From: Candidatus Anstonellales archaeon
GTDB lineage: Archaea; Micrarchaeota; Micrarchaeia; Anstonellales; J096
Assembly (NCBI GenBank): GCA_038890745.1
Contig: JAWAFD010000005.1
Location: 22,436-86,435, forward strand
Direction of reading: 5' to 3'
Length of the DNA: 64,000 nt
The notes below the pieces were generated by a model. That model was not told where the DNA came from and did no database searches. It saw nothing but the letters and a program-made list of their open reading frames with translations. Below, piece after piece: positions 28,219 through 62,637 of this stretch (its first letter is position 1; each line of letters begins with the position of its first letter). The translations under genes were made by a program, and so were the position numbers.

Positions 28219-28923
28219 GTGGTTAAATATTTTATGCGGTGGGGGATAAAACATTCATTTTCTGTTTTTGAGGATAGGCTTCCATATCTAAAAAGAGCTG
28301 AAATAAAAAGATACAGAGGAATTCTTCCGAAGTTTTCAGAAGAGTATGAAAGAAAATTTGGAAGGGAAAAATTGACAAGGATCGCATTTCCGCTCATAGA
28401 GGAAGCAATCACAAAATACCCGCCAAAGAACTTTCAGAAAGGATATGTCGGCGAGAGTTTGGCCGCGGCAGTGGTCTCTCTATTTATGGATGAAAGCGAA
28501 CTCCTTATAAGAAATCTAAAATTTTTCTACGAGTTTGGATGCGGGGAAATAGACTTGGCGATATTCAACGGTCCTTTCTTGACCGCAATAGGTGAGGTAA
28601 AAACTGGTGTAAATGGAAAACACAAAAGAAACCTTTCGAAAGTAAGGCACATCCGCGAGGCCCTGGGCTTAAGCGTAGATAGAGAAGAGATAAGTATTCT
28701 AAGCAGAATCTCTTTATCAGTAGCAAACATAGAGGGAATGACTAAAATAAGTCCGGTTAGGATAGACCTGGGCCCGAACAAAATAGAAATATACATTATG
28801 TATATGGCAAAGCTTTTTTCAGTCGGCCCATGGGACGCATGCTCAGAGAGTAATCCAACCATCAAAATACCCATTCACTCATCTGGAATAGGAATCCTTG
28901 CGGATGAATTGAAAATGTTGTAA
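28219..28923 (+). CDS. Hypothetical protein with PD-(D/E)XK nuclease-like motif
   Basis: GYVGESLA...GEIDLAIF..AIGEVK pattern; start uncertain. Confidence 0.55.
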   Translation: MVKYFMRWGIKHSFSVFEDRLPYLKRAEIKRYRGILPKFSEEYERKFGREKLTRIAFPLIEEAITKYPPKNFQKGYVGESLAAAVVSLFMDESELLIRNLKFFYEFGCGEIDLAIFNGPFLTAIGEVKTGVNGKHKRNLSKVRHIREALGLSVDREEISILSRISLSVANIEGMTKISPVRIDLGPNKIEIYIMYMAKLFSVGPWDACSESNPTIKIPIHSSGIGILADELKML

Positions 28924-28939
28924 ATAAGAAATTGAGTGC
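28912..28939 (+). repeat. 28-bp direct repeat, copy A1
   Basis: AAAATGTTGTAAATAAGAAATTGAGTGC, identical to 29876-29903. Confidence 0.95.
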
Positions 28940-28961
28940 GAATGGATGAGTTTATAAATAT

Positions 28962-28999
28962 TGCTATAAAAATATAGCACATGCTACAAAAATATAGCA
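28962..28999 (+). promoter_or_regulatory. Tandem 18-bp palindromic operator over the MNT start codon
   Basis: TGCTATAAAAATATAGCA (28962-28979) and TGCTACAAAAATATAGCA (28982-28999), just after the TATA box TTTATAAA. Confidence 0.75.
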
Positions 29000-29505
29000 G
29001 GTACAAAATTCTGCAGAAGTTTTTCGACTTTCCAACAAAAAGTTTTTATATGAGAGAGATTTCGAGGATTGTTGGAATATCCCAACCATCAACAATAGCA
29101 CATCTAAAAGCATTGGTAAAGGAAGGATTCATAATAAAAGAAAAGAAAGGTATATACCCATCATTCAAAGCAAATAGAGAAAATGAGCGGTTTAGGGTAT
29201 ACAAAAAATTAGACCTTATAATAAGGATGCATGATAGCGGCTTTATAAACTATATCCTTGATCTCTGCCTACCCGACTCATTGATACTGTACGGATCGGC
29301 TTCTAAGGGAGAGGACATAGAAACCAGCGATATCGATATATTTATTCAGTCTAAGGAGAAAAAAATAATTGTTGGGAAATATGAAAAATTATTTAATAGA
29401 AGAATTGCTCTTTTTTTTGAAGAAAACTTCTCGAGATTACCCGCAGAACTAAAAAACAATATTCTAAATGGGGTAGTACTACACGGGTATATAAAGGTGT
29501 TCTAG
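28981..29505 (+). CDS. wHTH-minimal nucleotidyltransferase (MNT) antitoxin
   Basis: N-terminal HTH (YMREISRIVGISQPST); LYGSASKGEDIETSDIDIFI. Confidence 0.9.
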   Translation: MLQKYSRYKILQKFFDFPTKSFYMREISRIVGISQPSTIAHLKALVKEGFIIKEKKGIYPSFKANRENERFRVYKKLDLIIRMHDSGFINYILDLCLPDSLILYGSASKGEDIETSDIDIFIQSKEKKIIVGKYEKLFNRRIALFFEENFSRLPAELKNNILNGVVLHGYIKVF

Positions 29506-29931
29506 ATGGAGTTGATTAAGGTTACGCCCAATAGAGAAAGGGCTGTTAGCATCCTTCGCATGGTTTCTTTAATAGAGAAAAGAATAGAGAAAGAGGATAA
29601 AGAAAAAATGGCTGCACTCATAATAGTGGATTATTATGAAATGATGAAGGAGCTCATCACTGCGATACTCTTAATCGATGGGTATAAAACACTGAGCCAT
29701 AAAGATCTGATAGAATATCTTAAACAACACTATCCTGAATTCAACCAACACGACATTTCAATCTTGGATAGAATTAGAGTTCTGCGAAACAGGGTAAGTT
29801 ATGAAGGTTTTTTTATTGAGCCATCCTACCTTACTAGGAATGAAAATACCTTCAAAAAAATAATTCAAAAATTAAAAAATGTTGTAAATAAGAAATTGAG
29901 TGCCAACAGCAGCCGCCTTTCCCGCCCATAG
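29506..29931 (+). CDS. HEPN-domain protein (MNT-HEPN toxin)
   Basis: Abuts the MNT gene; GYKTLSHKDLI and LRNRVSYEG (R-x4-Y variant of the HEPN motif). Confidence 0.8.
   Translation: MELIKVTPNRERAVSILRMVSLIEKRIEKEDKEKMAALIIVDYYEMMKELITAILLIDGYKTLSHKDLIEYLKQHYPEFNQHDISILDRIRVLRNRVSYEGFFIEPSYLTRNENTFKKIIQKLKNVVNKKLSANSSRLSRP
29876..29903 (+). repeat. 28-bp direct repeat, copy A2
   Basis: Identical to 28912-28939; overlaps the last 3 nt of the 5S rRNA. Confidence 0.95.
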
Positions 29932-30016
29932 GGCAGTAATCGGACAGCCGTGAGAGGGCTTAACTTCTGTGTTCGGGATGGGAACAGGTGTTACCCCTCT
30001 CCTATGGCCGTTGGCA
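29901..30016 (-). rRNA. rrf: 5S rRNA (unlinked)
   Basis: Reverse complement TGCCAACGGCCATAGG...CCCATCCCGAACACAGAAGTTAAG...GCTGTTGGCA; helix I termini are complementary. Confidence 0.95.
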
Positions 30017-30047
30017 AAGAGATTTTCTGTAAAGAAATGTTTTTAAA

Positions 30048-30545
30048 TCATTTCTTAACTCCCAAACTTTCATATGCGTTATTAACTTCTTTTTTTGCTT
30101 CTTCCAACATTTTTATTTCATCGCGCATGGCTTTAATTTGTTCCATGTTCTCTGATAGCATATACAGAGAATATCCCAAAAGCATCAATGTTGCAATCGT
30201 AGATGGCAACAAACCAAACCCAAGATGGAGGAATCGGTCTGCAACGGTAAGGGCCAATGAGCCAACAAAAGCACTAAAAAGAATAGTTAGTACATGAATA
30301 CTAAACACCTTGTCAATTTTTAACAGTTTTTTGGTCCGGTACAAATCATCTTCAATCTCGCGTTCCAGAACACTTAAGATATTTTCTGGTTTTTTATTTT
30401 TATAGTTATATTCGCAATCTCTGCATGGGTCCTCTGTCAAAAGAACGTTCTTTTTACCAAATGCAAATTTGTTGTACGTCTGCACCAATTCATTCATATG
30501 TTGCGGAAATTTGCTCATGTCTAAAGGTTTTATCGTCCTTCCCAT
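30048..30545 (-). CDS. Hypothetical membrane protein (2 TM, CxxC)
   Basis: GGTGG RBS; two hydrophobic segments; coiled C-terminus. Confidence 0.65.
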   Translation of the reverse strand: MGRTIKPLDMSKFPQHMNELVQTYNKFAFGKKNVLLTEDPCRDCEYNYKNKKPENILSVLEREIEDDLYRTKKLLKIDKVFSIHVLTILFSAFVGSLALTVADRFLHLGFGLLPSTIATLMLLGYSLYMLSENMEQIKAMRDEIKMLEEAKKEVNNAYESLGVKK

Positions 30546-30608
30546 AATACCACCATTTTACATTTTTTAACCGAACATTATTTAAAACATTTCGCTTCCT
30601 CTTTCCTC

Positions 30609-32099
30609 ATGGAAAAAATAACGCACTGGGCAGAAAGGCTTGCAAACGAGGTAATTGCAAAAAAAACAGAGCCATACATAATTACCGGTGGGATGACAAC
30701 CTCTGGACCTGCGCACCTTGGAACTGTTTGTGAGTTTCTTTTTCCGGATATGGTTAGGAGGGTTTTGGAGGGAAAGGGGAGGAAAGTAAAATTTTATTTT
30801 GTCGCAGATATAATGGATGCTTTTGATTCCATTCCTGCTTCTCTGGAAGAAAAACGAAAGATGCTAGAGCCGCATCTTGGAAAGCCATTGTGCTATGTTC
30901 CTTCTCCGGATAGTAGGGCGAAAAGTTATGGCGACTATTTCTTGGAGCAGGCAATGTATTTAATGAAAGTTTTTGGGGTTGGATGCGAAGTTGCCCGAGT
31001 AAATGAGCTCTATGAAAGAGGGGCTTTTGATAAGTATGCAAAGTTATTTTTTGAGAAATTAGAGATTGTTAAGGAGATCGTTGAGAAAACGAGTGGAAGG
31101 CAGCTTCCCAAGGACTGGAGCCCTATAATGCCTGTATGTGAAAAATGCGGAAAGATAGCGACAACAAGGGTTTTGAGCTATAATAGTAATGGGGAGTACG
31201 AGTATTCCTGCGATAAGGATGTTGAGTATACAAAAGGATGCGGGTTTGTTGGGAAAGCAAAAATTTCTGACCATAGGTATAAGTTGCAGTGGAGGTTGCA
31301 CTGGCCTTCTTGGCAGGACTACTTTAAAACAAGCATAGAAGGAGGGGGGGTGGACCATTTTACAAAGGGTGGGAGCTGGGATACTGCAAAAGAGATTCAT
31401 AGAAAGGTTTTTGGAAAAGAGCCGCCAATTGGGTATAAATATGGGTTTATACTATTTGAAGGAAAGAAATACTCAAAAAGCAAAGGAATAGGCATGGGAA
31501 TGATGGAGATAATAAAGCTCGTTCCTCCTGAGGTAGTTGCATATACGCTCATAAAATTCGACCTTGAAGAAAACATAGATTTTGTTCCTTCAAAAGAGAA
31601 TGTGCTAAAAATGATAGAGGATTATGAGTATGCATCTGAGTTAAAGGATGCTGAAGAAAAGGCTGATGTAAAAAAGAAAAAAGCGTACGAGCTTGCCGGA
31701 AAAAGAACATGGAAAGCAAAGTTCAGGGATGTTTTGCTTTACTATCAGATTTATAGGGAATGGGATAAGGTTGAGAGATTTTTAGGGAATGTGGAGTATG
31801 TTAAGCCATTTATAGAGGAATGGATAGCAAAAAAATTTGTTCCGGAGACCTATGATTTTGCGTATAGACCAAAAAAAGCAACCGGCGCAGTAAAAGAATT
31901 TTTTGAAAGTTTGAAGGAAGGAATGAGCGATGTTGAGATACACAACAGAATTTACGAATTTGCAAGGGGAAGTGGAATAGAACCCTCTGAATTCTTTAAG
32001 CAGATCTACCAAACCTTGATAGGAAAGGATAGAGGGCCGAAAGCAGGAAGGTTGATAGAGGTTTTAGGAGTGGAAAGGGTAAAAAAAGACGTTTTATGA
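30609..32099 (+). CDS. lysS: Class I lysyl-tRNA synthetase
   Basis: THWAE, SGPAHLG, LQWRLHWP, GGVDH, KYSKSKG, GPKAG motifs. Confidence 0.95.
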   Translation: MEKITHWAERLANEVIAKKTEPYIITGGMTTSGPAHLGTVCEFLFPDMVRRVLEGKGRKVKFYFVADIMDAFDSIPASLEEKRKMLEPHLGKPLCYVPSPDSRAKSYGDYFLEQAMYLMKVFGVGCEVARVNELYERGAFDKYAKLFFEKLEIVKEIVEKTSGRQLPKDWSPIMPVCEKCGKIATTRVLSYNSNGEYEYSCDKDVEYTKGCGFVGKAKISDHRYKLQWRLHWPSWQDYFKTSIEGGGVDHFTKGGSWDTAKEIHRKVFGKEPPIGYKYGFILFEGKKYSKSKGIGMGMMEIIKLVPPEVVAYTLIKFDLEENIDFVPSKENVLKMIEDYEYASELKDAEEKADVKKKKAYELAGKRTWKAKFRDVLLYYQIYREWDKVERFLGNVEYVKPFIEEWIAKKFVPETYDFAYRPKKATGAVKEFFESLKEGMSDVEIHNRIYEFARGSGIEPSEFFKQIYQTLIGKDRGPKAGRLIEVLGVERVKKDVL

Positions 32100-32107
32100 T
32101 TTCAGAG

Positions 32108-32362
32108 TTAGGTTTTATAGATATTTTTTCTATGCCCTACTTTGAGGACATGGATCTCCTTCTTCTTTTCATTGATATCAAGCAAAATGCGGTAATCGCC
32201 GACGCGACATTTCCAGCAGTTTGCATCAGTTATCTTTTCAACAAAATGGTATGGCGCGAGTTCTAGTTCAGTTATTTTTTTTATAACACGCTTCGCTATA
32301 TCCCTATTTAGTTTTTTTATGTCCTCTCTAGACCTAGGAGCCCAAATTATCTTGTAAACCAT
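32108..32362 (-). CDS. relE: RelE/StbE toxin
   Basis: CRVGDYRILLDI...VLKVGHRKNIY. Confidence 0.9.
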   Translation of the reverse strand: MVYKIIWAPRSREDIKKLNRDIAKRVIKKITELELAPYHFVEKITDANCWKCRVGDYRILLDINEKKKEIHVLKVGHRKNIYKT

Positions 32363-32605
32363 CTAAAGACCCAGTTCAGCCATCAGTTCCTTTGTAGTTA
32401 TACCTTTTCCTTCCCTGATCTGCTTTCTGGCAGTTTCTATATCCTTTTTTGTTTCTTTACTAAGTTTGCCTTCGGTTTTTAGTTTCTCGTAAATTGTTAT
32501 AAGCTTGTTTATCACCTCTTCGTAGCTTTCCCTCGCATAATCCTTCATACTTGCTAGTTTCTCTTTTGTTTCTTTATGTATTAAGATTGTTGTGTACGCA
32601 GACAT
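32363..32605 (-). CDS. Cognate antitoxin of RelE
   Basis: MSAYTTILIHKETKEKL..ESYEEVINKL pattern, directly upstream of the toxin. Start moved to 32605. Confidence 0.8.
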   Translation of the reverse strand: MSAYTTILIHKETKEKLASMKDYARESYEEVINKLITIYEKLKTEGKLSKETKKDIETARKQIREGKGITTKELMAELGL

Positions 32606-32718
32606 ATATATCACATATATAGTTATGTATATATACATATATAAACTTTCCTATCATTCTAAATAAAGCCTCCTTTAAGAAAATAAAAGTAAAAGAAAAA
32701 AAGAAAGAAAAGGCAGAT

Positions 32719-35487: not shown

Positions 35488-35620
35488 GCTTTCACCTTTT
35501 CCTGCATCGCCGAAATCTTTGCTTGGGTCCAAAAGGACTTGGCGATGCACTGGACCCATAACCCTGTTTATTCGTATGAATAAACGGGTTGAAAACTTCT
35601 CAAACATAAGCTTTATAAAG
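35488..35620 (-). promoter_or_regulatory. S-layer promoter and structured ~100-nt 5' leader
   Basis: TTTATAAA box near 35612-35619; 5' hairpin 35560-35590; two crossing helices 35503-35558. Confidence 0.7.
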
Positions 35621-35684
35621 TTTTTCTCTAAGTATAAAGAGATATTTATAAAAAATTGAATGGAGCATGGCAATCAACGAAATA

Positions 35685-36920
35685 CTACCTAGACAACTGA
35701 CTATTAAATAAGGATTTTTTTAGTAAAAAATCTATGGCGGAAAGGTATGTTATTCCGGACTCTATCTCAAAGCTCGGAGGATAGAGTGTGATCAAGAATT
35801 TCTTTATTCCTTTCTTAAGGGAAACTAAACCCTCTGTTTCTCGGGCAAATGTTTTTTTATCATTTATTTCATAACTTGCGTTTATTCCTGCGACTGGCCT
35901 CATATTGTCGGCAAGCAAAAAATCAACCTCTCTTTTTTTCTGCTCATAAAATATATTATATCTTTGGTATGACTTTAACTCATTATAAATAATATTTTCA
36001 AAAAGACGTGTTCTGTCCACGGTTGAGGAGGGCAAAATTGTAGAGAATGCTGTATCAACAGCGTACACTTTCTTAGGATTTGCTTCCTGGATTCTAAGTG
36101 AAGGACTGTATTTGTTTACAACATCTAAAAGAAAGGCTTGAGTAAGATAGAATATGTATCCCTTTACCGTGCTTTCATGATCTAATCCACAATAATCTTT
36201 GAGTTTTCTGTAGGAGAACCTGCTCCCTACGTTTGAAATAAGAAAAACTGCGAGTTTATGCAAAGAGTCTGGTTTTTTTATGGAAAAACGAGGGATTATG
36301 TCTCGGTAGAGAATTCTGTTAAAATACTCCGCAGCAAGTGTTTTCTCATTCGTTAGAACTACCCTGGGAAATCCTCCAAGGTCTATATATTTCTCAAGTT
36401 GAGATCTAAGCTCATCTCGGTCACTTGTTTTTATTTTCCTAAATAGCAGGAATTCCCTAAAAGAAAGAGGCCGGATGATGTACGTTATCGTCCTTCCTGT
36501 AAGAGCTGTGGAAAATTCTGAACACAATAGTTTTGAGTTTGAACCGGAAACAAAAACCTTAACTCTGCGGTTGATTCTGGATGCAAATTTTTCCCATCCT
36601 TTTACATTCTGAACCTCATCTAAATAAAGAATCTTCTCTTTTTTTTCATTAATAATGGAGAGTAGTTTTTCAAAATCAGAATAGTCGAAGTTTATAAGCC
36701 TCTCATCCTCAAAATTTATGTAAACCCCACCATACTTTTTTGCTAGGGAATAGAGAACAAATGTTTTTCCTGACCTCCTCACGCCAGCAATAACACTAAC
36801 CTCTTCAAATTTTAAGCTTTTTTCCAATTCTGGGAGGATTTCTCTTTCTATGGGATTCTCCTTTCTAATCAATTCTTCGTATGAAAGTACTGTTTCCCTC
36901 AGCTCCTCACGACCTAGCAT
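35685..36920 (-). CDS. AAA_14/DUF4143 ATP-binding protein
   Basis: GVRRSGKT, YINFEDERL, LDEVQ, SGSNSKLL, GGFP, KKVYAVD, LFENII, EVDF motifs. Confidence 0.9.
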   Translation of the reverse strand: MLGREELRETVLSYEELIRKENPIEREILPELEKSLKFEEVSVIAGVRRSGKTFVLYSLAKKYGGVYINFEDERLINFDYSDFEKLLSIINEKKEKILYLDEVQNVKGWEKFASRINRRVKVFVSGSNSKLLCSEFSTALTGRTITYIIRPLSFREFLLFRKIKTSDRDELRSQLEKYIDLGGFPRVVLTNEKTLAAEYFNRILYRDIIPRFSIKKPDSLHKLAVFLISNVGSRFSYRKLKDYCGLDHESTVKGYIFYLTQAFLLDVVNKYSPSLRIQEANPKKVYAVDTAFSTILPSSTVDRTRLFENIIYNELKSYQRYNIFYEQKKREVDFLLADNMRPVAGINASYEINDKKTFARETEGLVSLKKGIKKFLITLYPPSFEIESGITYLSAIDFLLKKSLFNSQLSR

Positions 36921-37008
36921 AATTAATTAAAAAAAAGAAGTATTTTTAAATGTTCGCATTGCAGTGCGCAATTTTTTGAATTTTTGCGCAATACTATGCG
37001 CGAATAAC

Positions 37009-37431: not shown

Positions 37432-37481
37432 GAAATCACCAAAAAGAGTAGGGTTGGAATATTAATAAATATTGCGGATGG

Positions 37482-38036: not shown

Positions 38037-38063
38037 GCGAGGAATTGAAAGAAAGGGTTTAAA

Positions 38064-39104: not shown

Positions 39105-39214
39105 ATAATCACGGTTTGCTTAATTTAAAGATGGGTTTAAAAAATTAGCGAAAACTAGTTCGGCAATCGCAGAATGGAAAGGTATTTAAACCTTATTTAA
39201 CATTAAATTATAAC

Positions 39215-40138: not shown

Positions 40139-40149
40139 ACTAATGTCCA

Positions 40150-44125: not shown

Positions 44126-44218
44126 AGGTTTGTTTTTGGGTGGAAAAGATAAAAAGAGTTGCGATACATGAAAGCTTTTTAAGTATAACTATACAAAACA
44201 TGTGCGTTGGGTGGGAGA

Positions 44219-44911
44219 ATGAAGAAATTGTTAATGGTTTTAGTGGTGGTTTCGCTTGTTCTAGCGATGCCAGCTGTGAAAACAGTCAGTACGGTAAGTA
44301 AAGCAACAGCAAGCACACTCAAACCCGGAACTGCGGTAAAAACGCCTTTAAACCCAAAAACAATAGATATCTGTAGCGTACGCAGACCGTTTCTACTCGA
44401 AAACTGTGAGTCATTTGAAATGTATAACATAACAGTAACATTTCACAATGCTACGATCTACAACGACAGTTCTAAATGGGCAAGCTTCAGCATATCCGAT
44501 CCAGAAGGTTACGTATATTTCATGCTTAGAGAAGGACAAAACTATTACTTCCTTCCAAAAACCGGTAAATTACTAAAACTAAAGCTCCACCAAGTTATAA
44601 ACCCAAACCAAGTGCAGGTTAGTTATGTGTGGTGCCCGGCAATGATCTACCCAAGGACGGTAACTGTTGCGGCTGAGGACCAGGTAGGAACAACCCATGG
44701 AGGGTATGGAGCATCCGTCTACCTTGGACAGATACTGCCATCCCTTATACCGGTGTATGAGTATGATTATATGTATAACTGGGTCGGATCTGATAATGTC
44801 TTTGAAGGCAGTTATACCGACTTCGTTGCAAATGGATACACTTATAGATTTACATATCTAAACCGTGTATCACCCAACACAGCAAAGGTACAATTTGTTG
44901 AATACAACTAA
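44219..44911 (+). CDS. Hypothetical exported beta-rich protein
   Basis: Signal peptide MKKLLMVLVVVSLVLA; N-glycosylation sequons; T-rich terminator. Confidence 0.7.
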   Translation: MKKLLMVLVVVSLVLAMPAVKTVSTVSKATASTLKPGTAVKTPLNPKTIDICSVRRPFLLENCESFEMYNITVTFHNATIYNDSSKWASFSISDPEGYVYFMLREGQNYYFLPKTGKLLKLKLHQVINPNQVQVSYVWCPAMIYPRTVTVAAEDQVGTTHGGYGASVYLGQILPSLIPVYEYDYMYNWVGSDNVFEGSYTDFVANGYTYRFTYLNRVSPNTAKVQFVEYN

Positions 44912-46234: not shown

Positions 46235-46744
46235 ATGTACATGAGCGATGTGGATATAAAGAAGGCGATAAAGAAAGGAGAAATAAAAATAGAACCGCTA
46301 AGTGAGGAGCAGATAGGGCCGGCAAGCATTGACCTTACGCTTGATAATATATGGTGGTTTCCGAAGAAGAAAATGTTTCCTGTTGATTTGAAAAAAGTTG
46401 GATGGGAGGAACTTATGGAGAAAAAGGTTGCGGAGAGGATAGTGCTAAAACCAGGAGAGCTCTGCCTCGGCATTACAAAAGAAAGAATAACACTGGCAGA
46501 CAATATAATCGGAAAATTAGAGGGGAGAAGCCGATATGCGAGGGTGGGGCTATCTGTACATATCACTTCTGCGCTTGTCCAGCCCGGTGTGAGCAACCAC
46601 CAGGTTTTGGAGATTGTGAATAATGCACCTTTTCCGGTAGTACTGCACGAAGGGATGAGGGTAAGCCAGATTGTTTTTGCAAAGACAAAAAGCAAAACCT
46701 CAAAACCATACAGAAAAGTAGGGAAGATAGCGGTTAAACAATAG
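46235..46744 (+). CDS. dcd: dCTP deaminase
   Basis: IGPASIDLTL, EGRSRYARVGL, VLEIVN, GMRVSQ. Confidence 0.92.
   Translation: MYMSDVDIKKAIKKGEIKIEPLSEEQIGPASIDLTLDNIWWFPKKKMFPVDLKKVGWEELMEKKVAERIVLKPGELCLGITKERITLADNIIGKLEGRSRYARVGLSVHITSALVQPGVSNHQVLEIVNNAPFPVVLHEGMRVSQIVFAKTKSKTSKPYRKVGKIAVKQ
46732..46743 (+). repeat. 12-bp direct repeat, copy B1 (3' end of dcd)
   Basis: GGTTAAACAATA, repeated at 47515-47526. Confidence 0.7.
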
Positions 46745-46775: not shown

Positions 46776-47342
46776 ATGAAGGTTGATGTTGAGGTAAAGG
46801 CAAAACCAAGCGGCATAGATAGATTCGTTTATGAATTTGTGAGGATTTTGGAAAGATATACGAATTATGCGTTAGTAAGTGGGTATGTTGCAATCTTGCT
46901 CGGGATGGAAAGACCTACGCAAGATATTGATGTTATAGTGGATGGATTTAAGAGTAAAAAAGAGTTCCATCGCTTTTTGCATGAGATAGAAAAAATAGGA
47001 TATTCAATAGCAATAAAGAAAGAGTGGGTGTATGAAATTTTTGAAAAAAGAGGAGAGAAAATTGATATTTTTACGAAAAAACAGTGGTATTTTGATTTTA
47101 AAAAAGCAAAAAATATCTGGGATGTGAATTCCGTAAAATATTCGATAAAAATAAAAAAAGGGAATTATGTATTCAGGACAGCCCCACCAGAGATTCAGGT
47201 GCCGTACAAACTCTTACTTGGAACCGACAAAGATATAAAGGATGCCAAATACATCTATGAAAGATTAAAAGATATCATAGATATTGAAACAATGAAAAAG
47301 AATGCTAGATTGATGAAAGTTGACCTGAGCTTGATAGTATGA
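46776..47342 (+). CDS. Nucleotidyltransferase-family protein (putative antitoxin/toxin)
   Basis: YALVSGYVAILLG.ERPTQDIDVIV and C-terminal YKL..GTDKDIKDA. Confidence 0.75.
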   Translation: MKVDVEVKAKPSGIDRFVYEFVRILERYTNYALVSGYVAILLGMERPTQDIDVIVDGFKSKKEFHRFLHEIEKIGYSIAIKKEWVYEIFEKRGEKIDIFTKKQWYFDFKKAKNIWDVNSVKYSIKIKKGNYVFRTAPPEIQVPYKLLLGTDKDIKDAKYIYERLKDIIDIETMKKNARLMKVDLSLIV

Positions 47343-47527
47343 AGAAAACAAAGATAAAGGCAAAAAGGATCACACCACTCCCTCCTGTTCCGAAGCTTGC
47401 AAGACAAAGGATGGGCAAAAAGAGGAGATATGAAGAATATATGAGACCGATCGAGTACATAGCAAAACATAGGAGCCCAAAAATACTTTTATACAAAAAG
47501 GCGAGAAGAAGGGTGGTTAAACAATAA
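47339..47527 (+). CDS. Small basic protein coupled to the nucleotidyltransferase
   Basis: ATGA overlap with the upstream stop; 62 aa, K/R-rich; ends VKQ as dcd does. Confidence 0.5.
   Translation: MKKTKIKAKRITPLPPVPKLARQRMGKKRRYEEYMRPIEYIAKHRSPKILLYKKARRRVVKQ
47515..47526 (+). repeat. 12-bp direct repeat, copy B2
   Basis: GGTTAAACAATA; overlaps the stops of both convergent genes. Confidence 0.7.
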
Positions 47528-48044
47528 CCCTTTTCTCAGTCACCACTGCGTCCATAACCGCATCATGCTCTTCATGCGCAAAATGCCTCACCTGAAAATC
47601 AAAACACACGCCGATTTTGAATGGATTGAATTTCTTCAAAAACTTATCGTAGTATCCTTTACCATACCCCAAACGATGCTTTTTTGGTGAAAACGCTAAC
47701 GCGGGTACAATGATAACATCTATTTTTTCTTTCCATTTAGGAGAAATGGGCTCAGGTATTCCAAACCTTCCTTTTTTCAATTCTTCAAAAGAATTAAACG
47801 GAGCAAAAACCAATCTTTCTTTTTCGAGCCGTGGGAGGAGGAATTTTTTTGTTTTATCTTTCATCAGTTGCAAAATCCTAACTTCATTTTTTATTGGAAA
47901 ATAGAGTGCAACAGTTTTTGCATCTCTGTACTCCTCCATTCTCCTTATTTTGTTGCATATTTTTCTGCTTGCGTTTTCAATAAACCCTTCGCTCAGGGAA
48001 AGCCTCTTCTTAAGCATTTCCTTCCGTAGTGTTTTTTTATCCAT
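47517..48044 (-). CDS. 5-formyltetrahydrofolate cyclo-ligase
   Basis: MDKKTLR, FGIPEP, IIVPALAF, RLGYGKGYYD, HDAVMD. Confidence 0.93.
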   Translation of the reverse strand: MDKKTLRKEMLKKRLSLSEGFIENASRKICNKIRRMEEYRDAKTVALYFPIKNEVRILQLMKDKTKKFLLPRLEKERLVFAPFNSFEELKKGRFGIPEPISPKWKEKIDVIIVPALAFSPKKHRLGYGKGYYDKFLKKFNPFKIGVCFDFQVRHFAHEEHDAVMDAVVTEKRVIV

Positions 48045-49215
48045 ACATCTCGCCCAGCATGTATATGGAGCCAGATGCAATTATTAAATCTTCCTCCCCT
48101 GCAATGGATCTTGCATACCCTATGGCCTTTTTCGGCTCTTTTATCACTTTCCCTCCATAGTAATTGGCTATATTTTCTGCCCTTTCGCTCCTCTCTATTT
48201 TTGCCTCTGTTGCAATCAGAACATCCGGCTTAAGAATATCGAGCATTTTCTTCCAATCCTTATCCCTCATCGCACCAAAAACAAGAATAAACTTTTTTTT
48301 GTTAAAAAGTTGGATTGCGTTTTTAAGGGACTGGGCGCCGTTTGGGTTGTGCGCTGAATCAAAAACAACAAATGGGTTTTTCGAAATTATTTCAAGCCTA
48401 CCTTTTATTTTTGCTTTTTCTATTCCTTTTACTATACCATCCTCGCTTATTCCCAACTCCTCTCCGGCCCTCGCAGCGATGCTGGCATTCTCCATCTGGT
48501 GTTTTCCTATAAGGGTTGTTTTTAGAACAAATTGTTTTTTTCCTTTATACAAAAACTCATTCCCATTCATATTGCATTTTTTCTCCTCAAAAAAGAAATC
48601 CCTCCCAAGTGCGTAAGCCTTCTTCCCTATTTCCTTTGCTCTTTTATCAAAAACATCCCAAACATTGCAGACTATTGCGTTGCTGTTTTTCATTATCCCT
48701 GCCTTTTCGCCTGCAATCCTCTCCAAACTCTCACCTAGAAATTCCATGTGGTCAAAATCTATCCTTGTTATCACGCTCAGTTTTTCCTTTGCAACATTCG
48801 TCGCATCCAACCTTCCGCCCATCCCAACCTCCATAACCGCAAAATCAACTTTTTTATCTGAAAAATAGGTATACGCAAGCGCGGTTGATGCCTCAAACTC
48901 TGTAAGGTCTGTCTTGTTTGCAATCTCCAGAATGCGCGGTTCGTATTTCGCTATCTCCCCATCGCTTATCTCCTTTCCGTTTACTTTCACTCGCTCGCTC
49001 CATTTTACTAAATGGGGAGAGAAATAGCTTCCAACCTTGTACCCGGATTCTTTGAGAAAAGAGGAGATGTAAGAAACAACAGACCCCTTGCCGTTCGTTC
49101 CGGCGACCAGGATCACAGGATAGTTTTCCTGTGGGTTTCCCAAAATTTCCATCGCTCTTTTTATTCTGTCAAGGCCGGGCCTGCTTCCCTTTTGCAGAAG
49201 AGAATCAAAAACCAT
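48037..49215 (-). CDS. folC: Folylpolyglutamate/dihydrofolate synthase
   Basis: AGTNGKGS, SPHL, EVGMGGRLDATN, DSAHNP, SGSIY. Confidence 0.95.
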   Translation of the reverse strand: MVFDSLLQKGSRPGLDRIKRAMEILGNPQENYPVILVAGTNGKGSVVSYISSFLKESGYKVGSYFSPHLVKWSERVKVNGKEISDGEIAKYEPRILEIANKTDLTEFEASTALAYTYFSDKKVDFAVMEVGMGGRLDATNVAKEKLSVITRIDFDHMEFLGESLERIAGEKAGIMKNSNAIVCNVWDVFDKRAKEIGKKAYALGRDFFFEEKKCNMNGNEFLYKGKKQFVLKTTLIGKHQMENASIAARAGEELGISEDGIVKGIEKAKIKGRLEIISKNPFVVFDSAHNPNGAQSLKNAIQLFNKKKFILVFGAMRDKDWKKMLDILKPDVLIATEAKIERSERAENIANYYGGKVIKEPKKAIGYARSIAGEEDLIIASGSIYMLGEMYG

Positions 49216-52096: not shown

Positions 52097-52128
52097 AAAT
52101 AAAAAAGTTTCCGAGCTGAGATGGGCGT

Positions 52129-55628: not shown

Positions 55629-55699
55629 AAAGAGAATTCACTAAAAACCTATTTAAATCTTCGCGACATGTTACGCCAAAAAAAGAAAGAGAAGGGAGG

Positions 55700-56371: not shown

Positions 56372-56446
56372 ACCATCGCCTTTGCAAACTGTCGCCTTTC
56401 TTTATTCTTCATCACTATTTTTAAATGTTTCTCCTGAGTTTTTTAC

Positions 56447-58120
56447 ATGCATACCAGAATTTTTTTGTTTTTTATGCTAATTTCATGTATGGTAAATTCT
56501 GTGGTTGTAATAAATAGTTTTGATGGAAGGGATGTTGTTTCTGGTGTTTATTACGCGCATGTGGTAGGCGATACTGTTAGGTTCGTTCCTCAAACAGGAG
56601 ATGTGACGACAACTGTTAAAAAAATTGGAAGCGGGAATTCAGTATTTCTCATAGAATCAAAGAATAACCCTGTTTATTCCGGGTTGGATGTCCTTCTTAT
56701 AAACAATGGGAACGGGGTGGAGGCATACAAAAGCGAAGACCCGTACAAAACGAATGTTGAGCTTGCGAAAAAATCCGGTGCAAAAAACTTTATTCTGATA
56801 AGTCCCTCCTATGGGTATTCTGCTGTTTCTGTTCTTCCTTACGCAAAGCTTAAGAAAGCATACCTGCTTTTTGCAACAAAAGATAATTTCAATTCCTTGA
56901 GGGATGTCCTGGAAGATGCAGAAAGCATAATGGTTTATGGGTATGTTGATGAGGAGGTTGAGAAAGAGCTTGAGGGAATGGGAAAAAGATATGAAAAAAT
57001 AAATACCGGCGATAAATATACTGATAACATCGAGATAGTGAAAAAGTATTTTTCGCTCAATCCGTCAAAAAAACAGGCGATACTTACAGATGGGAACTTT
57101 TTGGAAGATACGATAATTGCTGGCGATGATCCGATAATTTTTATCTCCATGATTGTCCCTGACAATACCTATAAATTTATAAAGAATGAAGTAGAGGGAG
57201 GCCAGCTTTCTGTTGGGCTTGTTATAGGTGAGGAGTACGCACAGCCTGCGTACAACTTGAAAAAGAGAATAAATAATGAATTGGGAGAGAATAAACTCTC
57301 TGTTCTTGTGAAAATGGGGCAAAGCGTACCCGCGCTCGGGGAGCAGCTTCTTCCTTTGGATATTTTTGTTCTACCTGGTCCGATAGTCTCACTTTCAATA
57401 AAAGAGGCCAACTACAATGATAATACAAAGGCCATAGAACTTGTTTACAGGAATGATGGAAATGCGCTCGGGTATTTTAAGAGTAGTTCATTTGTGTATG
57501 TTGGCGGAAAGTATCTTGCAACAGTGGGGGATAGCGAGCCTGTTGGAATAAAACCCGGTGAAGAGAGAGGGGTAAGGTATAGTTTGGAAATTCCTCCTGA
57601 AATGGAGGGCGATATTGTCCTCAATTCAACAGTGATATATGGCGCTTCCTCAAAAACATTTGACAATGGGTTTAGTGTTGTTCTAAATGCTGGGAGGATA
57701 AGGTATGAGGACCTCAGCTCACTCATGGTAGAGGAAGCGGTTTATGATCCAACGGAGGACGAGCTAACAGCAAAGGTAAGGAACAATGGAAACACAAATG
57801 CATATTTTGTTTTTTCTGCGGAGTATTCGGAGAATGGAGCGAAAACAACAATTGAGGATGATAATGTTTATGGACTCAAGGTTGGGGAGGGAAAGGTTTT
57901 GAAGATAAGTAACCTTCTCATAAAGGATCCTAAGAAATCGGGGATGAAAGTTAGGATTAGGTATGGGGAAAGAGCCGCATTCCTGGATAAAACTGCTGAA
58001 AAAGAGGTGGAGATTCGTGGCGGGATTCCTATCTGGCTAATCCTACTCGCACTGATCATTCTTGGGATAATTGCTTATTTTGTTTTGAGAAGAAAGAAAT
58101 GGCAAAGGCAAACTTTATAA
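56447..58120 (+). CDS. Membrane-anchored surface protein with cell-wall-binding-2-like repeats and Ig-like domains
   Basis: Signal peptide; DPYKTNVELAK and GDKYTDNIEIVK repeats; RNDGN/RNNGN Ig-like motifs; C-terminal TM then RRKK. Confidence 0.7.
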   Translation: MHTRIFLFFMLISCMVNSVVVINSFDGRDVVSGVYYAHVVGDTVRFVPQTGDVTTTVKKIGSGNSVFLIESKNNPVYSGLDVLLINNGNGVEAYKSEDPYKTNVELAKKSGAKNFILISPSYGYSAVSVLPYAKLKKAYLLFATKDNFNSLRDVLEDAESIMVYGYVDEEVEKELEGMGKRYEKINTGDKYTDNIEIVKKYFSLNPSKKQAILTDGNFLEDTIIAGDDPIIFISMIVPDNTYKFIKNEVEGGQLSVGLVIGEEYAQPAYNLKKRINNELGENKLSVLVKMGQSVPALGEQLLPLDIFVLPGPIVSLSIKEANYNDNTKAIELVYRNDGNALGYFKSSSFVYVGGKYLATVGDSEPVGIKPGEERGVRYSLEIPPEMEGDIVLNSTVIYGASSKTFDNGFSVVLNAGRIRYEDLSSLMVEEAVYDPTEDELTAKVRNNGNTNAYFVFSAEYSENGAKTTIEDDNVYGLKVGEGKVLKISNLLIKDPKKSGMKVRIRYGERAAFLDKTAEKEVEIRGGIPIWLILLALIILGIIAYFVLRRKKWQRQTL

Positions 58121-58143
58121 ACTATGTAAATTAAGATATAGCG

Positions 58144-60174
58144 ATGAGAAAATTTGCGTTTTTGTTGCTGTTGTTCTCTATTCTTTTTGCAGATGCAAAT
58201 GTAACATCAGAAGGAGGGAATGTAACTCAGATTTTTTTTAACACTACTTTGTTGAGTGAAAATTGGGATGGGATGTATGGGCAGGTTGTTTTGGGAGTCG
58301 GTTCAACAGTAACATACACTGTTGTTGGTGATAATATAATCAGGATAGATTTAAGCGGAAGCAGCCCGCCAGCTGGCTGCATCGTTAGGTACATAAATAT
58401 TGTAGCTATAAACAGAACTCTTGCATCGCCTTTGCCTCCGCTTACACCAGGAAACCTCACCCAGCTCGATGAGCTGATAAACTCAAGCGAGAATGCATCT
58501 TATGCATTCACATTCACAGACTCTTACAGCTTAAGTTTTGCAAATGTAACAAATGTTCCTTCTCTTTACACCCGCTCTTACGATGGCCTTAATCATTTTG
58601 AAATGGGGTATATGAACGATGCGAATAAAGACCTTGTTTTTGTTGCAAAATACAACGCCGATAAAATCGATTGGAACAACACACTAAGCGACTACCAGAT
58701 CATGCTCCCAAAAGGAAGTGCAAACATGGATTATACGCTTGCTGTTGATACTGTTTATACCTGCCCACCAGGCGGAGGAGGCGGAAGGAGCCATGAGCTC
58801 TACATCCCACCGATCCCTTCGCAGAGCTCAAAAATAGGAGAAACAAAAAATGTTCTTATATTTGTTGAGAATATTGGGGATTACACAGAAACAAATGTTA
58901 GATTAAGCGTTGTCTGCCCTGCCTCATTTTCATGTGGAAACGCAAACCTTGGAACAATCCATACAAACGCGGAAAAGAATGCTACAATAGCCATAGCTGG
59001 GAATGAGATTGGAACATTTATTCTAAAAGCAGAGGCAAGAAGCGATGATGCCTACACATATAGGGAGTTTTATTTTACTGTTGAGCCTGAATGCATAAGG
59101 AATGAGGATTGCGCAAGCGAGGAGTATTGCGAAAACGGAAAGTGTGTTGAGAAAAAGGAGATAAATGAGACATGTAAAAATGATTATGAGTGCAAAACAG
59201 GGCTTTGCGAGGGAATGAAATGCGTCGAATGTAAGAAAGATGAGGAGTGCGCGTGGAACGAAAAATGCGCAAATGGTTTTTGTGTTTTGATTGTTTGCGA
59301 ATGCGGCGAGGTAAAGAATCATGCATGTGTTCCTTATGAATGCTGCACGCATGAAGACTGCATGGAAGGTGAGGTTTGCATAAACCATGTCTGCACAGAA
59401 AACAAAGCGAATGTTGAAGTGGTTGGGAAAAACATGACTGAGGGAGCATATGTAGATGTTTTTGTGACTGATTTGTTGGGAAATCCTATAGAAGGGGCTC
59501 GGGTGTATACTGAGAATATGTTTGCTTATAGTGATGGAAGTGGAAGAGCAAAAATAAGAATACCCTATTCTGGGATAATATATGTCGATGCACTTGGGAA
59601 GAGAATTGGAAAATATCTTGATATAACAAGGCTTGCGTATATAAAAATAAAGAGTTCAGCTTATGTGATGGAAGAGATACATGGAAGTGTTAGGGATAGC
59701 AAGAATAAGGGAATAGGGATTGTTGAGATTCTTTATGATGATAATAAAACCGCATGGAGCGATGGAAACTCTGAATTCAAGATTCAATTTGGAACGCCCG
59801 GCTTAAAAGAGGTTAGAGGAAAAAAAGCGGCGTATCTCATAAAAAGCGCAACAATAGATGTTGTTTCACCTGCGCAGGTTTGCTATTTCCCGTACCTGCT
59901 CAATCTTATTGGCTTAAGGGATAATGAAATTTTTGCTCTTTGGGTCGCTGCTGTTCTGCTCGCAGTTTTCAATTTCTTTGCATATAGAAAAAGAACACTA
60001 TCAAAGTTTGTGCGTGCATTCCTTTATTCTTTCGCACCCATCCTGCTCTCCTTACCGAACACCTGGCCGCTGAGTATATGCTTCATGATGAATATTGTTT
60101 GCCTACAAGTTTTGTATGAAGTTGCGCTTATCATAAAGAAAAAACAGCAGGGGAAGAGAAGGAATAAAGAGTAA
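58144..60174 (+). CDS. Membrane-anchored surface protein: shared beta-rich domain, CARDB-like domain, Cys-rich repeats
   Basis: EGGNVTQIFFNTTLLSENWDGMYGQV; Gly linker; repeated CxxxxxCxxxxxCxxxxC-type units; C-terminal TMs. Confidence 0.75.
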   Translation: MRKFAFLLLLFSILFADANVTSEGGNVTQIFFNTTLLSENWDGMYGQVVLGVGSTVTYTVVGDNIIRIDLSGSSPPAGCIVRYINIVAINRTLASPLPPLTPGNLTQLDELINSSENASYAFTFTDSYSLSFANVTNVPSLYTRSYDGLNHFEMGYMNDANKDLVFVAKYNADKIDWNNTLSDYQIMLPKGSANMDYTLAVDTVYTCPPGGGGGRSHELYIPPIPSQSSKIGETKNVLIFVENIGDYTETNVRLSVVCPASFSCGNANLGTIHTNAEKNATIAIAGNEIGTFILKAEARSDDAYTYREFYFTVEPECIRNEDCASEEYCENGKCVEKKEINETCKNDYECKTGLCEGMKCVECKKDEECAWNEKCANGFCVLIVCECGEVKNHACVPYECCTHEDCMEGEVCINHVCTENKANVEVVGKNMTEGAYVDVFVTDLLGNPIEGARVYTENMFAYSDGSGRAKIRIPYSGIIYVDALGKRIGKYLDITRLAYIKIKSSAYVMEEIHGSVRDSKNKGIGIVEILYDDNKTAWSDGNSEFKIQFGTPGLKEVRGKKAAYLIKSATIDVVSPAQVCYFPYLLNLIGLRDNEIFALWVAAVLLAVFNFFAYRKRTLSKFVRAFLYSFAPILLSLPNTWPLSICFMMNIVCLQVLYEVALIIKKKQQGKRRNKE

Positions 60175-60182
60175 GCATCTAC

Positions 60183-61463
60183 TCAAGATCCGCGAAGAAC
60201 CCACTTCCATAGAGGAATAAATTTTATATTTTTTCCGTTTATTTTAACGGATTTGTCTTCATCTTCAGTTATCACAATCCCATCTTTTATTCCAACCTCG
60301 TCCATGGCTTCGCAAATGCCATCCCTCTCCCTTTCATTAAAATTGCTAGCGCTTACTTGAATAGCATGTTTCCCTCCTCTGGCATCAACTCCAATAAAAT
60401 CACACTCGTACTTATTTTTATAGTAGTAGACATCGTATCCTCTGCGTCTTAGCTCCATGAAAACAAGGTTTTCGTAAAGCCAACCAATATCTTTGGTTGC
60501 TTTAGTAGAAAGACAATTTACTAAACCATTATCTACAACATAAATTTTTTTTGGGTTTACTGCTCTTTTTTTTGGAGAGTTAGAATAAATGGAAACAAAA
60601 TAAAAATACAACGTGTCCTCTGCATACCCTGCAATCTCGTATAGCATGTCCTTACTTATTCTCTTGTTCTGTGATTTGAGAAAATTATAATATTTATTTA
60701 TGGAAAATGGCCTGGAAAAATTGTTTACTAGATACAAAAGAAGCTCCTTCACAAGATGGGGGTGTGGGATCGAGTATCTCTCAACAATATCCCTAAACAC
60801 GACAAGCTCAAAATAATTCCGTAAGATTTGGCATCTTACAAAATCGTCCCGGCCTACAACTTCAGGAAAACTTCCCTTAAACAAATACTCATTAAAGTAT
60901 TTTTTAAGTAGATACCTTTCTTTTGAATAAAGCATATCTGCTCTAAATTTTATTCCTCTGCTTTTGAGATACTCTTTAAACGAGAACGGAAAAACCTCGT
61001 AATTCCATGTTCTACCTCTTAACTCTGTTGCTATTTCTCTGCTCAAAAGCTTCGCAGAACTTCCAGTGAGGTATATTTCACAGTTTTCTGTATCATAAAG
61101 TCTTCTAACAAATTTTGACCAATATGGAGCATTCTGTATCTCATCAAACATAAAATAGACCTTTCTTTTTCTGTTTTCTGGATAGAGCTCATAGAAAGCT
61201 GAAAGTATTGTCTGGAGGTCTTCTTTTACCATACTTGTAAGCCTTTCATCCTCAAAATTAACATATAGTATCTGTTCTTTTTTTACACCGGCATTTAGAA
61301 GGTTATCGATTATTTGAAAGAGGAGGTATGTCTTCCCGGACCTTCTTGGACCTATGATCGTATAAATCTTACCTATATCAAGCAACCTTATTTCTCTTGA
61401 TGTATACTGTCTTTCAGGAAACCCTTCTGCAATTATAGTTTTTATCAACTCCCTGTCTATCAT
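60183..61463 (-). CDS. AAA_14/DUF4143 ATP-binding protein
   Basis: GPRRSGKT, VNFEDERL, FDEIQ, TGSSAKLLSREIAT.LRGR, KKIYVVDNG, YENLV, ECDF. Confidence 0.92.
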   Translation of the reverse strand: MIDRELIKTIIAEGFPERQYTSREIRLLDIGKIYTIIGPRRSGKTYLLFQIIDNLLNAGVKKEQILYVNFEDERLTSMVKEDLQTILSAFYELYPENRKRKVYFMFDEIQNAPYWSKFVRRLYDTENCEIYLTGSSAKLLSREIATELRGRTWNYEVFPFSFKEYLKSRGIKFRADMLYSKERYLLKKYFNEYLFKGSFPEVVGRDDFVRCQILRNYFELVVFRDIVERYSIPHPHLVKELLLYLVNNFSRPFSINKYYNFLKSQNKRISKDMLYEIAGYAEDTLYFYFVSIYSNSPKKRAVNPKKIYVVDNGLVNCLSTKATKDIGWLYENLVFMELRRRGYDVYYYKNKYECDFIGVDARGGKHAIQVSASNFNERERDGICEAMDEVGIKDGIVITEDEDKSVKINGKNIKFIPLWKWVLRGS

Positions 61464-61464
61464 A

Positions 61465-61517
61465 TTTCCTTTTTATAAGGAAACAATTTAAAAAACTTTT
61501 CCTTTTTAAAAGGAAAA
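61465..61517 (-). promoter_or_regulatory. Two palindromes flanking the ATPase TATA box
   Basis: TTTCCTTTTTATAAGGAAA (61465-61483) and TTTTCCTTTTTAAAAGGAAAA (61497-61517). Confidence 0.65.
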
Positions 61518-61569
61518 TATAAAAAAAGGTGGAGGGTTTGCCTTTCTAAACAAAAAGATGCTTAAAAGC

Positions 61570-61601
61570 ACTTCACTCAAGTTCCACCCAAAACTCAATC
61601 A
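61570..61601 (-). repeat. 32-bp direct repeat, copy C2
   Basis: ACTTCACTCAAGTTCCACCCAAAACTCAATCA (+ strand), identical to 62606-62637; supplies the HEPN stop codon. Confidence 0.95.
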
Positions 61602-62036
61602 TTTTTTTCTTTCTCTAAAATATTTGCTAACGGCGTTTTTTGTAGATTCTGCATAATTAATAACTTTCATGGCGGTCTTATCGTTATAGACTGCGCCATA
61701 GTCCGCACCTTCACGTGCATTCATTGCATAGTAAAAATAATCTAAAAGTTCGGTAAGAAGACCTTTCTCAACAAAGAGATGCTTAAACGCTGCCATCAAG
61801 CAAAAGTGGCTTTTTTCTCTATAACCTTTTGAAAAAACAAGCGCACGAATCGAATGAAAAATAGAATAGTATGCTTTAATCGTAGCCCATTTAACATCCC
61901 TATTCTGTAATGAATGTTTTGCCATAGTCAGGTCATATTCTGCCTCTCTTAACTCCTTTTCTATGAACGAAAGAGGGACTTCTCTTTTGATGATATTCCC
62001 TTTTTCTACACAATATTCAAACTCCCTTGCCATCAC
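61599..62036 (-). CDS. HEPN-domain protein (MNT-HEPN toxin)
   Basis: AEYDL..A, WATIKAYYSIFHSIRAL, GYREKSH, AREGADY. Confidence 0.88.
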   Translation of the reverse strand: MMAREFEYCVEKGNIIKREVPLSFIEKELREAEYDLTMAKHSLQNRDVKWATIKAYYSIFHSIRALVFSKGYREKSHFCLMAAFKHLFVEKGLLTELLDYFYYAMNAREGADYGAVYNDKTAMKVINYAESTKNAVSKYFRERKK

Positions 62037-62557
62037 TTCACCATCCGTCCAGATGTTATCTGATTGTATAGAGCTTTGTCCTTTTTTTTCAATCCAATAA
62101 ATTCATCTGTGCTTAGTACCAATGGTGAGAGTTTTCTTTCAGCTCTAAACCTAGTAATGACATCAAAAACACTATCTTTTTTCTCCGTTACTATACAGAT
62201 ATCCACATCACTATCCTCCTTATCTTCACCCGAAACGCAACTTCCAAAAATATATACCTTATGCGCGAGCGGAATTACGAGCTCAAGGAGTTCTTTAATC
62301 TCAATAAGTGTAAAGAGAAATTTAAACTCTCTTAATATGACACTCTCCATATTTGCTTTCGAGAACACCATATTTCCTTTCTTTTCCTTTTTTATGAGTC
62401 CTTCCTTCTCCATTTCTCGTAGTACGATGCTGACATTGCCAACACTTAAACCAAGTATTCGTGAGAGCTCTCTAACAGTGTAGCCCTTATCATAGTTTCT
62501 TCCTAAAAATTTCATGATCCGCAGATGGCTTATTGTGATGTTCATTTTTTTGAACAT
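62033..62557 (-). CDS. wHTH-minimal nucleotidyltransferase (MNT) antitoxin
   Basis: YTVRELSRILGLSVG HTH; IFGSCVSGEDKEDSDVDICI. Start moved to ATG 62557. Confidence 0.9.
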   Translation of the reverse strand: MFKKMNITISHLRIMKFLGRNYDKGYTVRELSRILGLSVGNVSIVLREMEKEGLIKKEKKGNMVFSKANMESVILREFKFLFTLIEIKELLELVIPLAHKVYIFGSCVSGEDKEDSDVDICIVTEKKDSVFDVITRFRAERKLSPLVLSTDEFIGLKKKDKALYNQITSGRMVK

Positions 62558-62576
62558 ATGTTTATAATTTTGAACA
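62539..62576 (-). promoter_or_regulatory. Tandem 18-bp palindromic operator over the MNT start codon
   Basis: Minus strand TGTTCAAAATTATAAACA then TGTTCAAAAAAATGAACA, 20-bp period. Confidence 0.75.
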
Positions 62577-62605
62577 AACAAGATAAAAATCTTTCTACTC
62601 ACCAG

Positions 62606-62637
62606 ACTTCACTCAAGTTCCACCCAAAACTCAATCA
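62606..62637 (-). repeat. 32-bp direct repeat, copy C1 (3' end of beta-helix gene)
   Basis: Encodes IEFWVELE* of the upstream gene. Confidence 0.95.

Follow-up and report, generated by a model that had tools for sequence, protein, structure and literature searches.

We analyzed a 64,000-nucleotide stretch (hereafter, the window) of contig JAWAFD010000005.1 from a Candidatus Anstonellales archaeon, in which three inserts of predicted toxin–antitoxin (TA) type, at 28.9–29.9, 46.7–47.5 and 61.6–62.6 kb (modules 1, 2 and 3), are each enclosed by a pair of direct repeats. The source genome (G000; 0.99 Mb, 93.8% complete, with the window on its contig C5) was compared gene by gene, by means of a home-made open reading frame (ORF) caller and reciprocal best hits, with two genomes of the same genus, G001 (82% complete) and G002 (88%), whose core genes have a DNA identity of ~78% to those of G000. 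Four sequencing runs from one study (X1–X4) were compared as contigs; X1 and X2 are possibly the source of G000. Together, these comparisons support the view that TA modules with such repeats are recombinase-free mobile cassettes with real empty alleles.

Three repeat-bounded modules

The first-pass annotation had given repeats of 28, 12 and 32 bp for modules 1, 2 and 3, and had noticed that the last ORF of each reaches the second repeat copy. The repeats of modules 1 and 3 are exact over these lengths. That of module 2 is also exact over 12 bp, but these bases are really the core of a decayed copy of ~36 bp in which 28 of 37 aligned columns are identical. In all three modules the last ORF does end in the second copy or run through it. 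The features are as follows.

Module 1
28219–28923 (+), host gene of unknown family upstream of the module, its stop codon within repeat copy 1
28912–28939 (+), repeat copy 1, 28 bp, exact
28962–28979, 18-bp palindrome just 5' of the module 1 start codon, predicted operator for the winged helix-turn-helix (wHTH) domain
28981–29505 (+), wHTH plus minimal nucleotidyltransferase (MNT), PADLOC PDC-M05A, GSx10DxD motif present
29506–29931 (+), HEPN-like partner, weak match to PDC-M05B
29876–29903 (+), repeat copy 2, coding for toxin residues 124–133 and overlapping the 5S rRNA 3' end
29901–30015 (−), 5S rRNA, convergent to the cassette

Module 2
46235–46744 (+), dCTP deaminase (dcd), host gene upstream of the module
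46708–46743 (+), repeat copy 1, decayed, ~36 bp, exact core 46732–46743
46776–47342 (+), predicted nucleotidyltransferase of a DUF2204/DUF6036/AbiEii-like neighbourhood (Atlas lead only)
47339–47527 (+), 62-aa basic orphan ORF ending within repeat copy 2
47491–47526 (+), repeat copy 2, exact core 47515–47526, containing the stop codon of the convergent gene
47517–48080 (−), 5-formyltetrahydrofolate cyclo-ligase, convergent

Module 3
62609–63925 (−), host beta-helix (NosD-like) gene ending in FWVELE
62606–62637 (−), repeat copy 1, the host gene's last codons and stop
62538–62557, 20-bp palindrome over the likely start codon of the nucleotidyltransferase, predicted operator
62033–62602 (−), wHTH plus MNT, PDC-M05A, likely start 62545
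61599–62036 (−), HEPN protein of AF0298/2hsb type, Pfam HEPN, PDC-M05B
61570–61601 (−), repeat copy 2, 32 bp, exact, opening with the three bases of the HEPN stop codon

Each insert holds two small genes only, with no mobility gene among them. Modules 1 and 3 carry a GSx10DxD MNT gene directly upstream of a HEPN-type gene, whereas module 2 lacks both the motif and a HEPN partner; its nucleotidyltransferase matched nothing in Pfam, NCBIfam or PADLOC, the sole database match of its 62-aa ORF was a near-identical copy of itself, and homologs of the module occur in 15 of 151 genomes. The toxins of modules 1 and 3 have an Rx4Y motif and lack the Rx4-6H RNase motif. An upstream histidine is invariant across the module 1 toxin family, and the module 3 toxin matches AF0298/2hsb, a type that the available text of PMC3710099 presents as a HEPN variant with an alternative histidine. 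A cassette combines a leader resembling a promoter with two genes, one of antitoxin type and one of toxin type, and is cut close to the last stop codon. The inserts include the TATA-like and palindromic leader 5' of the start codon, and judging from the start-codon palindromes modules 1 and 3 are probably self-regulated. Their G+C content (33–36%) differs from that of the genome (41%).

Empty sites between and within species

All three module sites are empty in at least one genome of the same genus, and the empty sites of module 2 (in G002) and module 3 (in G001) hold a single homologous copy of the repeat. In G002 the dcd and convergent ligase genes overlap inside that single copy; in G001 both module 3 and the adjoining ATPase gene are missing, leaving one diverged copy of the FWVELE end. 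Likewise, the repeat occurs once at the related empty sites of repeat-bounded cassettes elsewhere in these genomes, namely those at MIPS, at pyrG (18/31 bp) and at C2:77591. Module 1 is missing at its site in both G001 and G002, where only the 3' half of its repeat finds a partial match. The 28-bp repeat of module 1 and the 32-bp repeat of module 3 each have just two full copies in the genome.

A strain-level search for empty sites, which the first-pass annotation had proposed, yielded an exact one-copy allele of module 1. A contig of X4 passes over exactly 964 bp and retains a single 28-bp copy whose 28 letters fit on either side; elsewhere this same-species strain differs from the filled allele at 12 of 1642 bases. 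In X1, a single contig spans the filled module with both repeat copies, which argues against assembly error, though as non-independent evidence, X1 being possibly the source sample. The allele in X4 may represent an excision scar.

Repeats are enriched at cassettes relative to core genes

The genome-wide comparison with core genes that had also been proposed showed repeats to be enriched at cassettes. With 120-base windows at gene boundaries, a width so narrow that it misses several known cases, an exact repeat of at least 15 bp flanked none of 1262 core triples (12–14 bp in 8), while 136 lineage-specific segments included 7 with at least 20 bp and 10 with at least 12 bp (counts by repeat length). 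Among hand-picked TA-like modules of G000 and G002, 9 of 17 had an exact repeat of at least 12 bp (8 of at least 18 bp). Across the order, a score of at least 15 was reached at 7 of 30 HEPN loci, 5 of 18 AAA_14 loci and none of 20 dcd loci. In a phylum sample, 7 of 30 wHTH-MNT loci scored at least 14, compared with 1 of 299 cross-paired and none of 30 inverted controls. Loci in these tallies are the best match per genome, related genomes among them are not independent, and the sets overlap and include module 3 of the window and the G002 pyrG case. For a local chance baseline we used 290 pairs of neighbouring co-oriented core gene ends: the 12 exact bases of module 2 alone are reached by 2 of the 290, and its gapped score by 1.4%.

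The VapBC and RelBE pairs of the window have no flanking repeat. All three module sites are convergent, as are 42 of the 136 lineage-specific segments against a background of 475 of 2604 adjacent pairs; only 5 of 18 ATPase- or TA-family inserts are convergent, so we make no claim that convergent junctions are specifically targeted.

What is copied

The first-pass annotation had taken the copied piece for the 3' end of a host gene, a description that is too narrow. The copied boundaries include coding-sequence ends (modules 2 and 3), the overlap between a gene end and the next gene start (MIPS), sequence immediately 5' of pyrG, a terminator-like, T-rich tract and, in G002, 18 bp of the tRNA-Asp 3' end; promoters are copied too. 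Lengths across loci range from 12 to 140 bp. The start of the second copy lies −2 to +14 bases from the last stop codon in 7 of 9 cases. The TA repeats are mutually unrelated, unique and mostly unstructured, and their cargo is mixed (MNT-HEPN, nucleotidyltransferase-like, RelBE-like and Doc-like, by motif). One such locus, G000:C2:77591-78162, consists of a small gene and a gene that by eye has a Doc/Fic-like motif, set between 26-bp repeats; G001 has one 21-bp copy. The tRNA-Asp site of G002 lies at C28:27349-28100 and its G000 counterpart at C5 ~8480-8560, outside the window. The tRNA-Asp of G000 has an extra stretch of ~50 bases in the T-arm region, possibly an intron, at the position that in G002 marks the end of the duplicated 18-bp copy.

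The duplication is target-derived in modules 2 and 3, whereas the module 1 repeat codes for the C-terminal helix of the module's own toxin. Residues 124–133 match the conserved C-terminal helix of 119 homologs, in which the usual stop lies near residue 132. In the module 1 toxin this stop is gone and the reading frame continues across the repeat into the antisense strand of the 5S rRNA gene, giving 141 aa where the family has ~132, and the host gene ends ~15 residues before its G001 and G002 orthologs. Because the repeat codes for the conserved toxin C-terminus and the host gene is shortened to this extent, the toxin tail was probably copied upstream, where it now gives the host gene its stop.

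Re-used sites and matched repeat copies

The cassettes at pyrG in G000 and G002 are 77% identical (core median 78%) and have the same left junction. Neither in G000 nor in G002 do the two repeat copies differ from each other, and both carry the two variant bases of their genome. Such matching species-specific bases around an inherited cassette are not explained by a single old insertion; the pattern points to homogenisation or repeated re-entry of the same circle and, in either case, to recurrent recombination. The HEPN gene at the G000 site (C4:2274-3253) has an internal deletion relative to G002, with both repeat copies intact.

Sites are also re-used by different cargo. The dcd site of G001 is occupied by another insert, which is ATPase-like, shortened and of opposite orientation, and a piece of a HEPN gene lies behind module 3. 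This piece, a likely remnant of an earlier cassette, abuts repeat copy 2 and is followed by an ATPase gene:

61541–61569 (−), 29-bp copy, 90% identical, of the internal module 3 HEPN stretch 61762–61790
61465–61527, two palindromic boxes upstream of the ATPase gene
60183–61463 (−), AAA_14 plus DUF4143 ATPase (PDC-S01), not at this site in G001

In another family, an MNT-HepT pair with a 53-bp decayed duplication sits at a gene that likewise ends in FWVELE.

Repeat-bounded ATPase genes form a second class

The window holds a second ATPase of this kind:

35685–36920 (−), AAA_14 plus DUF4143 ATPase (PDC-S01), inserted relative to G001, with no duplication above chance

A degenerate repeat of ~19 bp had been suggested for one DUF4143 ATPase. 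For the ATPase at 35685–36920, the best match of its own end to that of the upstream gene scores at a level that 60% of the 290 core pairs reach, and the ATPase at 60183–61463 has no flanking repeat (score 8), so the suggestion is not supported. Both ATPases are absent from the same sites in G001. A box like those at 61465–61527 occurs on both sides of a related ATPase in genome G022.

In the three genomes, 7 of 17 AAA_14-family ATPases and 3 of 5 shorter ATPases are repeat-bounded, compared with a maximum score of 16 among 555 core genes. Eight repeat-bounded solo ATPase genes of G000 (C1:9488-10694, 105842-107146, 119694-121089 and 308193-309358; C2:191776-193120 and 218601-219761; C5:10325-12987) have near-identical repeats of 23–54 bp, most of them palindromic. 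Taken together, the palindromic repeats of solo ATPases in this genome measure 20–54 bp, with one copy lying at the stop codon and the other immediately 5' of the start. In one ATPase subfamily, 7 of 7 loci are flanked by palindromic repeats; these loci lie in different gene neighbourhoods of three families, and 6 have the same motif. At empty ATPase sites the repeat is missing or survives as a solo copy; X4, for example, is without the ATPase gene at C1:105842 and has one 25-bp copy left. We conclude that ATPase repeats are borne by the element and are not target duplications, which makes these genes a second class beside the TA cassettes.

Two further sites involve such repeats. At G001:C11:9338-9387 a solo degenerate palindromic repeat stands where G002 has a 421-aa ATPase, and the same site in G000 has a different ATPase with a different repeat. 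At G001:C25 ~7675-7710, near the contig end, a palindrome resembling the repeat of a 358-aa G000 ATPase lies directly behind the MNT gene of the MIPS site.

No recombinase was found to account for the cassettes

The absence of an integrase or transposase, already noticed in the first pass, extended to recombinase searches elsewhere in the genomes, which covered tyrosine and serine recombinases and left DDE transposases unsearched. The tyrosine recombinase profile PF00589 had no match in G000 or in 18 other genomes of its family (77–94% complete), which disfavours a chromosomal tyrosine recombinase as the trans-acting enzyme once suggested; across the order it matched in 62 of 121 genomes, and divergent enzymes are possible. 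Not even a XerA-type enzyme is detected by this profile in the 19 genomes of the family. Neither a resolvase (serine recombinase) nor a reverse transcriptase (RVT_1) was found in G000, G001 or G002, and no Y1 transposase was found in G000. Cas1 occurs in G000 alone of the three, at one locus near a CRISPR array on C3 (G001 and G002 being 82% and 88% complete). None of these five enzymes was found where needed, and we rejected them all as the engine. DprA was found only in G000 of the three genomes and so does not serve as an explanation in general. G000 has RadA.

Other features of the region

A window gene at 44207–44911 is absent in X4, where 44136 is joined to 44957 with 26 other letters between; it has no flanking repeat. 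At 27985–28171 a weak tRNA match is followed by a high-copy repeat family, with a depth several times that of the flanks, which recurs near other tRNA-like loci of the genome. Just outside the window, G000:C5:13000-22400 is an array in which a two-gene unit recurs; the units have long segments in common, and a single RelBE-like pair is embedded among them.

How the cassettes may move

Given the results of the machinery searches, we favour recombination by the host over short homologies, by way of circles and with dense gene packing as the filter, an explanation to which we give about an even chance of being right. The homology-assisted capture that was among the options of the first-pass annotation fits the findings. 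The process would start with a rare illegitimate join producing a circle that consists of the cassette and a short piece of flank, host-derived in modules 2 and 3 and the cassette's own tail in module 1. By one crossover, using RadA or a short-homology pathway, the circle would enter a one-copy chromosome and leave two copies. Loss and regain via the repeats would keep the copies identical, and a one-copy allele of module 1 does occur within the species. Where genes abut, mainly insertions that duplicate the shared boundary signal would be viable, which would make gene ends and promoters look targeted. Repeat lengths of 12–140 bp are unlike the product of a fixed-stagger enzyme. In Sulfolobus islandicus, 35–40 bp of homology is enough for gene replacement, according to the accessible part of PMC6249222.

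Several points weigh against this explanation. The repeats of 12–32 bp are shorter than the 35–40 bp of the Sulfolobus case. The X4 allele may be a one-way deletion and not a refillable site. Placement of the second copy at −2 to +14 bases is tighter than random circle formation would give and calls for trimming or an unknown rule, and the first, illegitimate step has no observation of its own. The case for homogenisation consists of two bases at one locus. Repeats are absent from 8 of the 17 TA-like modules and from 23 of the 30 wHTH-MNT loci. Finally, no circle junctions were seen in the contigs of the four runs, whose comparison covered module 1 and two ATPase loci; because contigs drop rare forms, the absence of circles is not demonstrable from them.

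A one-step break repair, in which a staggered or resected break captures a linear cassette by microhomology and fill-in duplicates the target without any cycling, is possible but appears somewhat unlikely to us. It accommodates the variable lengths, several junctions share the stop codon or 1–3 bases with the repeat start, and double-strand breakage is suggested for restriction-modification genes in the text available from PMC2853133; empty alleles would then be ancestral or simple deletions. The identical species-specific variants around the pyrG cassette would, however, need added gene conversion, the module 1 repeat of the toxin's own tail is left unexplained, and the TA cargo has no predicted DNase.

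It is doubtful that the PDC-S01 ATPase-nucleases mobilise the cassettes, acting on their own palindromic repeats in cis and on TA cassettes in trans. Such an activity would suit the repeat-bounded ATPases of both size groups, the subfamily whose loci all have palindromes and the empty sites with a solo copy or no repeat, and both in the window and in another family the FWVELE site has ATPases next to TA cassettes. The TA repeats, however, are mostly unstructured and have no motif in common with the ATPase repeats, the co-location may merely mark tolerated hotspots, and validation of most PDCs is described as pending in the portion of PMC12988326 that could be consulted. Taken further, Micrarchaeota might have a recombinase-free cassette economy in which ~1-kb circles carry TA pairs and single defence genes and insert at gene boundaries, with the widespread PDC-S01 proteins as a novel type of mobilising enzyme that acts in cis on its palindromic terminal repeats and in trans on TA cassettes, a picture we find improbable.

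Still less credible is a site-specific integrase of a passing virus, or a divergent, unrecognised recombinase, acting at att-like cores. The 18-bp duplication of the tRNA-Asp 3' end in G002, the re-use of sites and the tyrosine recombinases of 62 of the order's genomes would suit it; against it, none was detected in the 19 family genomes, no resolvase in three, and the repeats vary in length and have no common sequence. Assembly artefact or chance, which metagenome assembly and the near-chance 12-bp core of module 2 might suggest, is largely refuted and has next to no probability, given the single contig across module 1 with both copies, the exact one-copy allele of the other strain, the control sets and the same layout in independent genomes.

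Relation to known systems

The first-pass annotation had called the mobility route undescribed, yet insertion with long target duplication has been published for bacterial restriction-modification genes (Furuta, Abe and Kobayashi 2010; PMC2853133), with an unproven mechanism, and is restated in PMC3874152, as far as the accessible text of both papers goes. On that text, the shared traits are defence-type genes, no mobility gene and variable-length direct repeats that are single and unique at empty sites, some of them overlapping gene 3' ends. In the part of PMC2853133 available, no archaeal restriction-modification system passed the repeat screen, which had a cut-off of 30 bp; the 28-bp repeat of module 1 falls under it, while module 3 (32 bp) and the decayed repeat of module 2 (~36 bp) exceed it. 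The cassettes differ in that the cargo is TA-type pairs in place of restriction-modification genes, has no predicted DNase and resides in an archaeal host, in that most repeats are shorter than 30 bp and several cassettes occur per 1-Mb genome, and in that one repeat is cassette-derived and one pair looks homogenised. The TA footprint works like insertion with long target duplication, with different cargo.

In gene content the modules resemble HEPN-MNT type VII TA systems (PDC-M05), which the available portions of PMC12988326, PMC3710099 and PMC2701414 describe as archaea-enriched, mobile two-gene modules with an MNT gene followed by a HEPN-type gene. Unlike those, the MNT here has an N-terminal wHTH and falls below the NCBIfam MntA cut-off, and the toxins lack the Rx4-6H histidine. 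The phrase "direct repeat" has no occurrence in PMC2701414 or PMC12988326. A literature search over titles and abstract openings, most subscription papers being beyond reach, turned up no paper that describes this footprint around TA or DUF4143 genes.

Among better known routes, Campbell-type integration by a single crossover turns one copy at the empty site into two (attL and attR) and restores the interrupted boundary. The cassettes likewise go from one copy to two, but no integrase is present on the element or was found in the family, and their repeats are unrelated from site to site. Casposons and other Cas1-type integration create target duplications of a few tens of bases; here there are no terminal inverted repeats, G001 and G002 have no detected Cas1, and lengths range over 12–140 bp. 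Unlike retroelements, the inserts include a leader 5' of the start codon, and the three genomes have no detected RVT_1.

Implications for archaeal TA and defence genes

It has long been a puzzle how chromosomal TA and defence genes that lack a transposase can move, and the version known from restriction-modification genes lacked a mechanism in 2010, according to the available text of PMC2853133. The pattern described here extends insertion with long target duplication from bacterial restriction genes to archaeal TA genes; the TA-wide tally, the strain-level empty allele, the homogenisation of repeats and the re-use of sites are new. The lineage offers a test case, combining no detectable tyrosine recombinase with several cassettes per Mb, filled and empty alleles in the same species and re-used sites. 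If the circle model is true, 12–32 bp of homology would suffice for gene gain and loss in these archaea.

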